A stretch of DNA of 64,000 nt from a virus, in the IMG/VR virus record IMGVR_UViG_3300013102_000030, positions 64,001 through 128,000 of that record. The stretch is one strand, 5' to 3'. Made by a program: the position numbers and the translations under genes. The notes below the pieces were generated by a model that did no database searches, was not told where the DNA came from, and saw only the letters and a list, made by a program, of their open reading frames with translations. Positions 19,926 to 22,951 of the stretch are shown here, piece by piece (the stretch's first letter is position 1; each line of letters begins with the position of its first letter).

Positions 19926-19992
19926 ACACGAAGCGCTTGGGAAGAGTTACTTCTTTGGGTGAAATCACACTCTTGCCGTCTTTTTCTCGTGT
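19926..19992 (+). ncRNA. Y-RNA-like element Y1 (minimal)
   Basis: ACACGA/TCGTGT stem, GAAGCG, AAGAGT/ACTCTT stem, TACTTC, 3' TTCTC. Confidence 0.7.
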
Positions 19993-19997
19993 CTCCT

Positions 19998-20070
19998 AGG
20001 TTCGTAGCTCAATTGGTAGAGCGTCGGTCTCCAAAACCGAAGGTTGCAGGTTCAAGTCCTGTCGGGCCTG
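19998..20070 (+). tRNA. tRNA-Trp(CCA)
   Basis: Cloverleaf; anticodon arm TCGGT-CTCCAAA-ACCGA. Confidence 0.95.
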
Positions 20071-20074
20071 CAAG

Positions 20075-20102
20075 TTGACAAACTATAAATGTATGGTACA
20101 AT
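20075..20102 (+). promoter_or_regulatory. SigA-type promoter
   Basis: TTGACA...TGGTACAAT. Confidence 0.65.
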
Positions 20103-20154
20103 TGTACTGTAAAGACATGAAGACTCGCCGTCTAACGGACTCTTCATGTTGTAG

Positions 20155-20228
20155 CGGGGTGTAGCTCAGCTTGGTAGAGCGCCTGTTTTGGGAACAGGAA
20201 GTCGCAGGTTCAAATCCTGTCATCCCGA
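20155..20228 (+). tRNA. tRNA-Pro(TGG)
   Basis: CCTGT-TTTGGGA-ACAGG. Confidence 0.95.
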
Positions 20229-20230
20229 CT

Positions 20231-20404
20231 TTGACCGAAGCGATTGAAAAAGATACTTCCAATGAACCAGTAATGTAAGTATCGGCCAAGGGGAAACTCT
20301 TGTCCCTAGTGTAGGAATCTTCCTACTTTGTTTTTCGTTTCACATGTAGTACCCTAGCAGTACCTAAAGCAGTACCCACTCTTTTTCAGGTATTTCTCGG
20401 TCAA
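20231..20404 (+). ncRNA. Y-RNA-like element Y2 (long non-tRNA cargo)
   Basis: TTGACCGA/TCGGTCAA, GAAGCG, TGAAAAAGA/TCTTTTTCA, TACTTC, TTCTC. Confidence 0.75.
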
Positions 20405-20411
20405 TCAAGTT

Positions 20412-20530
20412 TGAAAGAAGCGACGAAAACTGATACTTCGGAAACTATCAACTATTTATTGATTAGCGGTTCAATCCCGCAAACAGACCTTCCCGGTCTG
20501 ATAACCTCAGTTTTCACCTATTCTCTTTCA
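20412..20530 (+). ncRNA. Y-RNA-like element Y3 (T-arm cargo)
   Basis: TGAAAGA/TCTTTCA, GAAGCG, GAAAACTGA/TCAGTTTTC, TACTTC, T-arm GCGG-TTCAATC-CCGC. Confidence 0.75.
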
Positions 20531-20534
20531 TTAT

Positions 20535-20607
20535 GCAGAAGTAGCTCAATTGGTAGAGCGCCTTCCTTCCAAGTAGGATGTTGCGGGTTCGAGTCCCGTC
20601 TTCTGCT
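20535..20607 (+). tRNA. tRNA-Gly(TCC)
   Basis: Anticodon loop CTTCCAA; full cloverleaf. Confidence 0.92.
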
Positions 20608-20612
20608 CTAGT

Positions 20613-20684
20613 TACAGATGTGATGTTGTCGAGTTACTTCCAACTCTTATTCGAAACAACACTTGACACGCTCTGTTCTCTGTA
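20613..20684 (+). ncRNA. Y-RNA-like element Y4 (minimal; overlaps the Ro60 promoter)
   Basis: TACAGA/TCTGTA, GATGTG, TGTCGAGT/ACTTGACA, TACTTC, TTCTC. Confidence 0.65.
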
Positions 20685-20691
20685 CTAAGCT
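20663..20691 (+). promoter_or_regulatory. Putative promoter of the Ro60 gene
   Basis: TTGACA-17-TAAGCT upstream of a GAAAGG RBS. Confidence 0.55.
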
Positions 20692-20743
20692 TTACACTGT
20701 TATCAGGTTCTCCTGAATTGAAAATGACGAAAGGTATATAATC

Positions 20744-22366
20744 ATGTCCAAGTACAACACTTCTTCTGCGCGTTCTCGCGCTGGTGTCGGCCCGATCAAG
20801 TCCGCACCTTCCACCAATCTTCGCACCTTTGAAGGTGCAACCGGCTTCGCTCGTGATGCCAAGTCTGAACTCTTCCTTGCCGCTGTCTCTGATTTCGGTG
20901 GAGAGGCAACTTTCTACGAGTCTGCCAGCAACCGCGCTGATCGTCTCAAGGGTCTTGCCCATGAGGTCGCTGTTCAGGATGCCGACTGGCTGACGAACTT
21001 CACTCAGTGGCTCCGCAACGAAGCCAACATGCGTACCGTCTCCCTCACCACTGCCCTTGAAGGTGCCAAGGCACTCAACAAGGCCGGTATTCCGGGTGGA
21101 CGCAAGCTGGTCTCCAACGCGATCCGTCGTGCTGATGAGGCCGGTGAAGCTCTCGCTTACTGGATGGCAAACAATGGTCGTAAGATCCCGTCTGCTGTCA
21201 AGCGCGGTATCGCTGATGGTGCTGTGAAGTCCTTCAGCGAGTACTCCCTTGCCAAGTACGACACGGCTTCCCACGGCTTCCGCTTCGGTGACGTGATCGA
21301 ACTGACCCACCCGTCTCCTCGGGACGAGAAGCAGTCCGACCTGTTCAAGTTCGCGCTTGACCGTCGTCGTGACGCTGCCGCAGAGCCTTCTGAGAACCTG
21401 ACCATGCTCCAGAAGCGTAAGGAATTCCTCGCGCTTTCTGACGCTGAGAAGCGTGAACTGGTCAACTCCGGTAAGGCTCTCGATGTCCTGTCTCAGGCTG
21501 GCCTGACGTGGGAGGTTCTGTCCTCTGCGTACGGTAAGGGTGGTCTCGATGCCAAGGGCTGGGAAGCAATCATCCCTTCCATGGGTTACATGGCTCTGCT
21601 CCGCAACCTTCGTAACTTTGAAGAGAAGGGCGTTTCTGACGCTGTTCTGGATCAGGTAGCTGCACGGATCTCCGATCCTGCTGAAGTTGCCAAGTCCCGT
21701 CAGCTTCCGTTCCGCTTCCTCGCGGCCTATCAGGCGAACAAGGGTTCCCTCCGCTTCGGCTACCCTCTGGAGAAGGCCCTCAAGGCTTCTCTGGAGAACG
21801 TTCCGGCTCTGGATGGCGATACCCTGATCCTCGTGGACCGCTCCATCTCCATGTTCGGTACCCTCTCCAAGAGCACTCAGTTGAACTTCGCTGACTCTGC
21901 TGCTCTGTTTGGTTCCGCCCTTGCTCTGCGTGCAGAGAAGGCTACTCTTGTGGCCTTTGGCGATAACTCCAAGGAGATCTCCTTCAAGCGCAGCGATTCG
22001 GTTCTCAAGACCGTTGAGCGCTTTGAGCGCATGGGTGGTACGATGACCTATGACGCTCTGGTGAAGCACTTTGATCCGTCAAAGCACACCCGTGTTGTCC
22101 TCATCACCGATGAGCAGGCAACCGGTGCGTACTACCGATCCACGGCAAACCGTGGCTGGGGATACCAGACCGTTCAGGGAGACATCCTTGATGCCATTCC
22201 TTCCACCATCCCGGCATACACTTGGAACCTCGCGGGTTACAGGGCCGGTCACGGTGAGTCCAAGACGAACCGAACCTATCTGGGTGGTTTGTCCGATCAG
22301 GCTTTCAAGCTGATCCCGCTCCTTGAGCGTGGATACGACGCTGGCTGGCCTTGGGAAGTCAAGTGA
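20744..22366 (+). CDS. rsr: Ro60 / TROVE-domain RNA-binding protein (Rsr homologue) with C-terminal vWA domain
   Basis: TFYE, LRNEANMRT, YSLAKYD, HPSP, LTWE, MGYMALLRNLRN, SRQLPFRF, MIDAS DRSISM, ITDEQ. Confidence 0.93.
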   Translation: MSKYNTSSARSRAGVGPIKSAPSTNLRTFEGATGFARDAKSELFLAAVSDFGGEATFYESASNRADRLKGLAHEVAVQDADWLTNFTQWLRNEANMRTVSLTTALEGAKALNKAGIPGGRKLVSNAIRRADEAGEALAYWMANNGRKIPSAVKRGIADGAVKSFSEYSLAKYDTASHGFRFGDVIELTHPSPRDEKQSDLFKFALDRRRDAAAEPSENLTMLQKRKEFLALSDAEKRELVNSGKALDVLSQAGLTWEVLSSAYGKGGLDAKGWEAIIPSMGYMALLRNLRNFEEKGVSDAVLDQVAARISDPAEVAKSRQLPFRFLAAYQANKGSLRFGYPLEKALKASLENVPALDGDTLILVDRSISMFGTLSKSTQLNFADSAALFGSALALRAEKATLVAFGDNSKEISFKRSDSVLKTVERFERMGGTMTYDALVKHFDPSKHTRVVLITDEQATGAYYRSTANRGWGYQTVQGDILDAIPSTIPAYTWNLAGYRAGHGESKTNRTYLGGLSDQAFKLIPLLERGYDAGWPWEVK

Positions 22367-22435
22367 CTTTCCTCCTGCTCTTTCCGGTTGCTCTGGCTCT
22401 TTTGGGCTGGGGCAACCGGAAGGAGATGTGGTAAC

Positions 22436-22465
22436 TTGACCTCAGTCTGAGGACTGTGGTACAAT
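22436..22465 (+). promoter_or_regulatory. SigA-type promoter for Y5 and downstream RNAs
   Basis: TTGACC-18-TACAAT with extended TG; +1 falls at about the Y5 5' end. Confidence 0.7.
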
Positions 22466-22469
22466 AGAT

Positions 22470-22580
22470 TTACTGAAGCGCAGAGTAGAGTTACTTCATA
22501 TCATTCATGGTACGCCCTGTTGGAGGGTTTACGGGTTCAACTCCCGCGTAAAAATCTCTCTATTCGATTTTTCTCAGTGA
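22470..22580 (+). ncRNA. Y-RNA-like element Y5 (hairpin plus T-arm cargo)
   Basis: TACTGA/TCAGTG, GAAGCG, GAGTAGAG/CTCTATTC, TACTTC, CGGG-TTCAACT-CCCG. Confidence 0.75.
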
Positions 22581-22581
22581 T

Positions 22582-22655
22582 GCTTCCTTAGCTCAGTTGG
22601 CCAGAGCGGCGCTCTTGTAAAGCGTAGGTCGTCGGTTCGAATCCGACAGGAAGCT
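22582..22655 (+). tRNA. tRNA-Thr(TGT)
   Basis: GCGCT-CTTGTAA-AGCGT. Confidence 0.95.
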
Positions 22656-22658
22656 CTA

Positions 22659-22797
22659 GTCCAGAAGTGATAGATACCTGTTACTTCCTCTGTTAATGGA
22701 CGAGACCGTGGTTCGATTCCCGGATACCCCGCTTCATGGGGTATTAGTGTAATGGTTTAGCACTGTAAAATCACAGGGATCGCCTTTTTCTCTGGAC
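22659..22797 (+). ncRNA. YrlA-like Y RNA Y6 (circularly permuted tRNA domain)
   Basis: GTCCAGA/TCTGGAC stem, TACTTC, then T-arm, loop-closed acceptor stem ATACCCC/GGGGTAT, TA, D-arm GTGT-AATGGTTTA-GCAC. Confidence 0.85.
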
Positions 22798-22804
22798 AAA
22801 ATTT

Positions 22805-22951
22805 TGTGTGAAGTGTAAAGAAGAGTTACTTCTAACTCAAATCAGCGGGTCGCAGGTTCGAATCCTGTCACCTGACCGTTCGCGGTTGGGTGTAGCTCAG
22901 ATGGAAGAGCAGCCGACATCTAACAAGCCTCTTCTTGCTTGTTCTCACACG
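22805..22951 (+). ncRNA. YrlA-like Y RNA Y7 (circularly permuted tRNA domain)
   Basis: TGTGTGA/TCACACG stem, TACTTC, T-arm GCAGG-TTCGAAT-CCTGT, acceptor stem CACCTGACCG-TTCG-CGGTTGGGTG, D-arm GCTC-AGATGGAA-GAGC. Confidence 0.88.

Follow-up and report, generated by a model that had tools for sequence, protein, structure and literature searches.

A probable array of divergent YrlA/YrlB-type Y RNA genes around a phage Ro60 gene

The viral contig IMGVR_UViG_3300013102_000030 from IMG/VR (174,136 bp, rated complete), of which bases 64,001 to 128,000 make up the stretch of 64,000 nucleotides analyzed here (the window), belongs to a large soil phage and encodes a Ro60-like protein whose gene is flanked by seven small related elements, Y1 to Y7. 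In our assessment these elements are, with a probability of roughly 0.8, divergent Y RNA genes of the YrlA/YrlB type that supply the phage Ro60 protein with RNA partners. Y RNAs are ancient partners of Ro60 about which little is understood, and to our knowledge only one or two Y RNAs per species have been studied in bacteria. An earlier note on this DNA had described the elements as Y-RNA-like genes partnered with the phage Ro60. That description is borne out by their exclusive co-location with the Ro60 gene, by covarying stems, by motifs corresponding to those of YrlA and YrlB and by matches to the Rfam YrlA model below its threshold, while the interpretation of the note as a whole is partly supported. 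All seven elements lie on the plus strand, at most 820 nt from the open reading frame (ORF) with the TROVE domain and within 3 kb around it, and their boundaries agree with those first proposed to within 1-2 nt.

The common handle and its relation to YrlA and YrlB

Every element consists of a common handle that encloses a variable module. In the 5′ to 3′ direction, an outer stem of 4-6 bp (S1), extended by GA:UC, leads into the motif GA(A/U)G(C/U)G, followed by three to five unpaired nucleotides, a second stem of 5-9 bp (S2) and the single-stranded hexamer UACUUC. The module of 15-115 nt comes next, and the handle is completed by the complement of S2, six to eight unpaired nucleotides, the motif UUCUC and the complement of S1. 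This order of stems, motifs and module, with UACUUC invariant, is the layout that had been proposed, and it recurs in 7/7 elements. Directly 3′ of S2, where UACUUC begins, the sequence reads UUAC in Y1 and Y4-Y7 or AUAC in Y2 and Y3. The two-motif pattern GA[AT]G[CT]G-N11-12-TACTTC occurs seven times on both strands of the whole 174,136-bp genome, compared with an analytic expectation of 0.15 and a maximum of one occurrence among 100 mononucleotide shuffles.

For searches beyond the window, we built covariance models of the family. Model R1, derived from Y1 alone, missed the long copies with filters off; R2 was built from the seven window copies and six copies of Arthrobacter phage Atuin, the nearest named relative, and R3 was rebuilt from 32 copies in seven phages. 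The MAFFT alignments A1, A2 and A5 placed the 3′ part of the handle out of register and were not used. Instead, alignment A4 with a hand-written structure served as starting point and was then realigned with the model.

As had been anticipated, the stems vary between copies while pairing is kept. Across 150 phage copies, 90.7% of the handle cells are paired, compared with 56.5% in shuffles (85.5% versus 50% for 32 copies), and changes on both sides of a pair affect 869 cells, compared with 262 in shuffles, a number reached by 0/500 shuffles; these figures overstate the significance because the alignments were fitted to the model, which somewhat inflates the counts, and because the sequences are related. 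Compensatory change was found at 16/17 handle pairs, most positions showing all four types of Watson-Crick pairs, and sliding the pairing partners reduced pairing to 29-48% (35-48% for the 150 copies). Across the 150 copies, G7, G10-C11-G12 and UACUUC (95-100%) are invariant, as is, at 94%, a C located two bases into the 3′ strand; the 5′ consensus of the family is cccGaUGCG.

One structural detail of the earlier proposal, a helix between GAAG and UUCUC with a bulged C, was not supported, since neither joint counts nor mutual information over the 150 copies revealed covariation. The additional pairs (A:U and G:U around the bulged C) can form in the window phage, whereas position 9 is a U opposite a U in most family members. 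A conserved internal loop is the better reading of this stretch. A pairing between GAAG and CUUC of the two motifs was likewise dropped, as it is possible in the window phage and impossible in the GAUG majority. Equivalence with the bulged helix of metazoan Y RNAs (GGUCCGA / UUGACC) was also rejected given the lack of an Rfam match and of covariation in the bulged-C pairing, and the metazoan Y RNA model RF00019 did not match the elements even at an E value of 10.

The handle corresponds in several respects to YrlA. Genes for YrlA RNAs are found close to Ro60 in the same orientation, and the RNAs themselves have a 5′ GNCGAAN0-1G motif, presumed to contact Rsr, followed by a conserved YUAY that opens the V loop and by a tRNA-like domain composed of T arm, acceptor-like stem and D arm (PMC4201824). 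The window elements have GA(A/U)GCG as probable counterpart of the former motif and UUAC within UUACUUC as counterpart of YUAY, whose position is occupied accordingly in all seven. The literal CGAAG is present in Y1 (ACACGAAG) and Y2 (GACCGAAG). All seven elements are located within 4 kb of the Ro60 gene on its strand, where the best genome-wide matches are found. Moreover, the layout of the handle matches the 5′ part of the Rfam YrlA consensus, in which a paired cggCga is followed by an unpaired AUGCu, a second stem and CUA. Published primer and probe oligonucleotides of the Rsr-bound YrlA and YrlB RNAs from Mycobacterium smegmatis carry GAUGUG and ACUUC: YrlA starts with ...GGUGAUGUGAG and further contains UUACCACUUC and UUACCACUUCUAAUGG, and the complement of the YrlB probe contains GCGACUUCAAGGUUCGA. 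The M. smegmatis YrlA primer had no match in any phage or bacterial locus retrieved, so that the link to this YrlA rests on motif comparison and not on a model hit. Since the handle is the part held in common with the published Rsr-bound RNAs, it is likely to be the Ro60-binding module.

Comparison with the existing YrlA model (RF02553) gave matches that are significant but stay below its threshold. Y7 was recognized with 31.7 bits (E 1.6e-5), which is below the cut-off of 69 bits, and long Ro-proximal copies from related phages and bacteria scored 40-51 bits (best 51.4). At the gathering threshold, Rfam searches of the window, 15 related phage loci and 10 bacterial loci yielded nothing but tRNAs. 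The Rfam YrlA model appears too narrow for the lineage of the window phage. None of the seven elements was called a tRNA by ARAGORN or Rfam RF00005. The correspondence of motifs, the M. smegmatis oligonucleotides and the sub-threshold Rfam matches together argue for divergent members of the YrlA/YrlB class. With regard to form, Y6 and Y7 have all three arms of YrlA, and Y1 and Y4 are hairpins with a loop opening in UACUUC; Y2 fits neither form.

Distribution in phages and actinobacteria

Searching with R3 and checking the matches for co-location with TROVE genes supported a dedicated association. In the complete 174-kb genome, the seven elements beside Ro60 are the only full-length matches (40-79 bits), the others being weak, partial and directed to tRNA T arms. 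Including this genome, R3 detected copies only at Ro60 in five whole phage genomes, the other four being Atuin (six copies), GiJojo (five), BRock (four) and Neville (four). In the Streptomyces phages GiJojo and BRock and the Gordonia phage Neville, the copies are directly upstream of the Ro gene. In contrast, Arthrobacter phage Racecar has no Ro gene and no R3 match in its whole genome, although its gene order is the same (ribonucleotide reductase followed by tRNA-Trp, Pro, Gly, Thr, Phe and Gln).

In Atuin, whose Ro gene is about 81% identical to that of the window phage in DNA and 69.5% in protein, two copies precede and four follow the gene. Each paralog retains its own stem sequence between the two phages, and copies have been gained or lost as clean units: Y2 and Y4 are missing in Atuin, which has one extra copy past its Y6 ortholog, and the Atuin ortholog of Y5 is a short form of 73 nt that has lost the module.

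Among 41 IMG/VR contigs encoding a relative of the window Ro60, R3 found 137 matches, all on the strand of the Ro gene. At least two copies were present at each of the 38/38 loci with upstream DNA, ranging from two to nine with seven at three loci. Thus, the array is not exceptional, and two to nine copies accompany every related phage Ro60 that could be examined. Bacterial chromosomes showed a similar arrangement. At 80 actinobacterial rsr loci we found 195 matches, typically two or three per locus and at most six, close upstream of rsr, and a Micromonospora genome (G002) with two TROVE genes has each of them behind its own array (C3:102184-103576 and C11:66408-68273), one of three copies and the other of five to six. 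In a sample of 121 genomes from one bacterial family (nine TROVE-positive, 112 TROVE-negative), 5/121 had R3 matches; all five were TROVE-positive, each with a match within ~1 kb of the gene, and 0/112 TROVE-negative genomes of this family had a match.

A similar handle was found in the Thermus phage phiLo (MH673673.1; locus L137). Just downstream of the Ro60 coding sequence, R3 matched positions 3991-4058 (26.8 bits) and 4182-4263 (29.6 bits) with E values of 1e-5 and 2e-6 in a search of 6.4 kb. Both matches contain UACUUC, flank and overlap ORF phiLo_25 and differ from the published Yrl1 and Yrl2, which are upstream of the gene. These matches near the phiLo Ro60 suggest that the handle reaches beyond actinobacteria.

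GenBank tRNA features overlap Y-like elements in GiJojo (tRNA-Arg cct, L003 2769-2843), VanLee (tRNA-Arg tct, L006 2704-2775) and JustBecause (tRNA-Cys, L007 1835-1905), and three tiny hypothetical ORFs of Neville, gp88-90 (L005 2463-2873), do so as well. ARAGORN repeats the GiJojo tRNA-Arg(cct) call starting 5 nt inside the handle, and the call is probably wrong. In BRock, a segment between two tRNA-Lys genes (L004 5079-5242) resembles the Rfam manA RNA at 49.7 bits, below the cut-off of 55.2.

Several observations weigh against an assignment to YrlA/YrlB-type Y RNAs. Five of the seven elements carry GA(A/U)G(C/U)G without the C of GNCGAA, CGAAG being confined to Y1 and Y2; Y1, Y2 and Y4 have no tRNA-like domain; and no copy attains the curated Rfam YrlA score (31.7 at best versus 69). 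Four TROVE-positive bacterial genomes of the sample had no R3 match, and one match of 38.6 bits (G093:C1:1211124-1211273) is 2.5 Mb away from the only TROVE gene detected in its genome, being either an orphan copy or a false positive. Matches unlinked to TROVE genes, which would have spoken against the proposed partnership, were absent from the phage genomes searched, with this single bacterial one on the other side. The inflation of the covariation counts mentioned above belongs here too, and every functional step, for the window phage and its relatives, is deduced.

Organization of the locus and its variable modules

The Ro60-like protein (20744-22366, plus strand, 540 aa) combines a TROVE domain (PF05731, 61.8 bits, cut-off 23) with a subsequent vWA domain (VWA_2, PF13519) that scores 24.3 bits, slightly below the cut-off of 27. 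It matches the phiLo Ro60 structures 9KOP/9L5Y with an E value of 7e-32, and its counterpart in Atuin is named 'Ro-like RNA binding protein'. A hairpin with a 9-bp stem and without a U-run follows the stop codon (22377-22426, plus strand) and is a possible 3′-end or processing structure. An RNA-repair partner was not found by Pfam among seven flanking ORFs. The genome segment contains 30 tRNA genes, all on the plus strand, from 19998 to 40639; two ORFs within this region match a papain-family peptidase (24786-25586, 30.2 bits) and a PcfJ-like protein (25830-27176, 42.4 bits).

All features described in the following are on the plus strand. Upstream of Ro60, Y1 (19926-19992, R3 44.6 bits) is a short YrlB-like hairpin with an apical loop of 15 nt after UACUUC and has an ortholog in Atuin (L001 3014-3083). 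Five nucleotides past Y1 begins tRNA-Trp(cca) (19998-20071), and tRNA-Pro(tgg) (20155-20229) ends immediately before Y2, which starts 1 nt downstream (20231-20404, 47.8 bits) and combines the handle with a non-tRNA module of 115 nt; orthologs of Y2 are present in the loci of relatives (L010-L012) and none in Atuin. Y3 (20412-20530, 58.3 bits) has a hairpin, a T-arm-like hairpin (GCGGUUCAAUCCCGC) and a third hairpin on its handle and lacks a D arm. Separated by 4 nt on either side, tRNA-Gly(tcc) (20535-20608) leads to Y4 (20613-20684, 40.4 bits), a short YrlB-like form with the variant GAUGUG. Downstream of Ro60, Y5 (22470-22580, 65.2 bits) carries a hairpin and a T-arm-like hairpin and is abutted by tRNA-Thr(tgt) (22582-22656), which also abuts Y6 (22659-22797, 66.8 bits). 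The latter is YrlA-like with a T arm, a 7-bp acceptor-like stem-loop and a D arm. The YrlA-like Y7 (22805-22951, 79.2 bits), whose module resembles a circularly permuted tRNA-Pro body, is followed after 3-4 nt by tRNA-Phe(gaa) (22956-23031). A leader hairpin at 20113-20151, located ahead of tRNA-Pro, is outside the Y family and gave only weak R1 stem matches; it forms a near-perfect stem of 12 bp (ACAUGAAGAcUC ... GAcUCUUCAUGU) and is not conserved in Atuin.

Three promoter-like sites were recognized by their match to the consensus: P1 (19890-19919, TTGACA-18-TACAAT), P2 (20075-20102, TTGACA-16-TACAAT), which precedes the leader hairpin, and P3 (22436-22465, TTGACC-18-TACAAT), each with a TG. 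The sites head three groups, namely Y1, tRNA-Pro-Y2-Y3-tRNA-Gly-Y4-Ro60 and Y5. The claim that Y1 and Y5 start at the +1 of strong promoters agrees with this match. The predicted +1 of P1 (~19926) is the first base of Y1 and that of P3 the start of Y5, and both sites occupy the same places in Atuin. P1 and P3 share the form TTGAC-N-TGGTACAAT, ending 6-7 nt before Y1 and 4-5 nt before Y5, respectively, while P2 carries ATGGTACAAT and another spacer. A third exact copy of TTGAC-N-TGGTACAAT is found at 33725-33754, 8 nt upstream of tRNA-Met, and thus the motif looks like the promoter type of the phage tRNA operons.

Gaps between Y elements and tRNAs measure 1-5 nt, so that cleavage at the 5′ and 3′ ends of the tRNAs would release the Y RNAs. 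Known polycistronic precursors are Yrn2-tRNA-Asp-Yrn1 in Deinococcus radiodurans and YrlA-YrlB in M. smegmatis. The close spacing could also mean that the elements act in cis, either as spacers that guide processing or stability of the tRNA/Ro60 transcript or as autoregulatory Ro60 sites. Such a role would fit the position of Y4 in the Ro60 leader with no promoter in between and the location of the array directly upstream of Ro60 on the same strand in most relatives. We nevertheless regard it as improbable: the Gordonia phages Neville and VanLee and bacterial chromosomes have arrays beside Ro60 with few or no adjacent tRNAs, the 20-kb tRNA region of the window phage has no copy away from Ro60, Y5-Y7 are downstream of Ro60 with a promoter-like site of their own, and in M. 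smegmatis the homologous RNAs accumulate as separate species bound to Rsr.

The modules are as diverse as the earlier notion of a shared scaffold with different cargo implied, with complete tRNA-like modules in two elements and partial ones in two others, a large non-tRNA module in one and minimal hairpins in the remaining two. The acceptor-like stems of Y6 and Y7 are 7 and 9 bp long. In the Y2 module, two hairpins with compensatory changes, a U-run and three AGUACC repeats are found and no tRNA features; it is kept in four relatives, and one segment can pair with the UACUU of Y2 itself. At 20311-20336, a hairpin followed by UUUGUUUUUC has the look of an intrinsic terminator, and its stem covaries in three relatives (L010-L012). 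In a terminator scan this was one hit versus 3.9 in shuffles, which is not significant by the scan alone. The structure might mark the end of a shorter RNA or be a protein-binding site.

Among the 150 phage copies, ~62% have a T-loop motif and 37% have none; this count alone was used as the regular expression for D arms is crude and undercounts them. Where modules are tRNA-like, they match particular phage tRNAs. Y7 agrees with the phage tRNA-Pro at 21/22 positions over variable loop, T arm and the start of the acceptor 3′ strand and, in permuted order, at 13/13 positions over the acceptor 5′ strand and D stem. The extra copy of Atuin matches tRNA-Thr at 22/22 and 18/18 positions, and the Atuin Y6 ortholog contains the D arm of Racecar tRNA-Gln (19/19). 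The modules may thus derive from the tRNA genes of the array or still exchange with them.

Matches of this kind, extending over 18-22 nt in Y7 and the Atuin extra copy, would also be expected if the RNAs were mainly Ro60-independent tRNA decoys against host tRNA nucleases or modifying enzymes, with the linkage to Ro60 being historical. The presence of 30 phage tRNAs is in line with a contested tRNA supply. On the other hand, it is the non-tRNA handle that is most conserved, with UACUUC being 95-100% invariant; more than a third of the copies (37%) have no T-loop motif, and in the phage genomes searched every handle is accompanied by a TROVE gene, which makes decoys of this type quite unlikely. 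Least probable is an origin without function, either as tRNA pseudogenes in decay or as a small repeat or mobile element caught in the tRNA array, for although pieces of the modules are tRNA-derived, intact copies have been gained or lost between the window phage and Atuin and some relatives are annotated as tRNAs, compensatory change upholds the handle pairs (16/17), the motifs are invariant in Arthrobacter, Streptomyces and Gordonia phages, in actinobacterial chromosomes and apparently in a Thermus phage, the stems specific to each paralog are kept relative to Atuin despite 69.5% identity of the Ro60 proteins, and the genome has no copy elsewhere.

Proposed mechanism and comparison with known systems

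For Y RNAs of the YrlA/YrlB type, a mechanism can be envisaged as follows. Transcription from the three promoters would yield polycistronic precursors that contain, besides the Y RNAs, six tRNAs and probably also the Ro60 mRNA. Enzymes of tRNA processing (RNase P, RNase Z or exonucleases) would cut at the abutting tRNA ends and free the Y RNAs. By homology, Ro60 would bind every handle, and the modules would recruit or occupy different host factors. One Ro60 protein could thereby give rise to several distinct ribonucleoproteins during infection, serving RNA quality control or blunting host defences. Roles of the RNAs as adaptors or decoys and the interchange of seven of them on a single Ro60 ring, both envisioned earlier, would be part of this scheme. 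In this view, the array is an expansion of the two- to three-gene arrangement beside actinobacterial rsr.

Precedents exist for the engagement of such partners. Yrn1, YrlA and the phiLo Yrls engage PNPase, and RNase P, the CCA-adding enzyme, TruB and DusA act on YrlA. A counter-defence role appears plausible because phage Bas63 is reported to counteract the ppl defence system with a Ro60-like protein (PMC11482910). As a tentative idea that we consider rather unlikely, Ro60 phages might keep an expandable library of Y RNAs whose modules are copied in permuted form from their own tRNA genes (Pro-, Thr- and Gln-like in the window phage and Atuin). Such a library would equip the one Ro60 ring with look-alikes of individual tRNA isoacceptors that act as decoys or sensors against tRNA-targeting defences or steer host tRNA enzymes and PNPase, and new members would be added through recombination in the tRNA operon.

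With regard to novelty, earlier work has reported Y RNAs beside Ro60 in bacteria and 22 phages, with at least two per characterized species, as well as loci with several Y RNAs and co-transcription with a tRNA (PMC4201824). The claim that such a diversified array had not been described therefore stands in part: no paper on expanded phage arrays was found, whereas loci with multiple Y RNAs and their co-transcription with tRNA had been published. In the literature searched, we did not find arrays of up to seven to nine copies as the norm of a large actinophage clade, the invariant UACUUC extension of YUAY, clean gain and loss of copies between close relatives, non-tRNA modules or modules matching specific phage tRNAs, some of which may be listed in the supplementary tables of Chen et al.

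Actinophages including the cultured isolates Atuin, BRock, GiJojo, Neville, VanLee and Satis have two to nine Y RNA genes per Ro60 gene. The handle with its invariant UACUUC is now defined and can be mutated, natural gain and loss of single copies is evident between close relatives, and individual modules can be tied to individual tRNAs. This offers a tractable system, testable in cultured phages, to find out which factors are recruited by the modules and whether the particles formed by phage Ro60 act in RNA quality control or in counter-defence. Annotators are offered a model for genes that GenBank currently leaves unannotated or lists as tRNAs or tiny ORFs.

Among the known systems, metazoan Y RNAs (RF00019) are likewise modular, with a Ro60-binding stem, a variable loop and several paralogs per genome. 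In the window elements, however, the conserved C belongs to the 3′ strand, and covariation lends no support to its surrounding pairs. In D. radiodurans, a Y RNA tethers Ro60 (Rsr) to an effector within the PNPase-containing RYPER complex, Yrn2, tRNA-Asp and Yrn1 are part of one precursor, and accumulation or function of Yrn1/Yrn2 was reported to be lost without the Ro60 gene. Several small RNAs upstream of rsr are a feature held in common with the window phage. In contrast, the Yrn handle resembles the metazoan bulged helix and the tRNA-like part is arranged otherwise, and a sequence relation between the window elements and the D. radiodurans Yrn RNAs was not found. The phage phiLo also encodes both a Ro60 (E 7e-32) and Y-like RNAs; its Ro60 binds its own Yrl1 and Yrl2 and forms complexes with host PNPase (PMC12135203; PDB 9KOP, 9L5Y). 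The choice of Yrl1 and Yrl2 was based on a CGAA motif upstream of the gene, whereas handles of the R3 type match two other stretches downstream.

The closest correspondence is with YrlA and YrlB, which occur together with Rsr in Salmonella, M. smegmatis and 22 mycobacteriophages (Chen et al. 2014, PMC4201824; Rfam RF02553). The window phage differs in having seven copies instead of the one or two characterized, in their placement on both sides of Ro60 interleaved with six real tRNAs, in the handle GA(A/U)G(C/U)G with an extended invariant UACUUC, in the non-tRNA-like module of Y2 and the match of tRNA-like modules to particular phage tRNAs, and in scores below the Rfam YrlA threshold for every copy. 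In both systems, the genes share the strand of the Ro60 gene at a distance of at most a few hundred bases, the 5′ handle motif appears related to GNCGAAN0-1G and YUAY is located past the second helix. The long forms have the permuted order of T arm, acceptor-like stem and D arm, the short forms are extended hairpins whose loop is rich in pyrimidines, and several RNAs are derived from one precursor, as proposed for the window phage. The array therefore represents an expanded set of divergent Y RNAs and not a unique invention.

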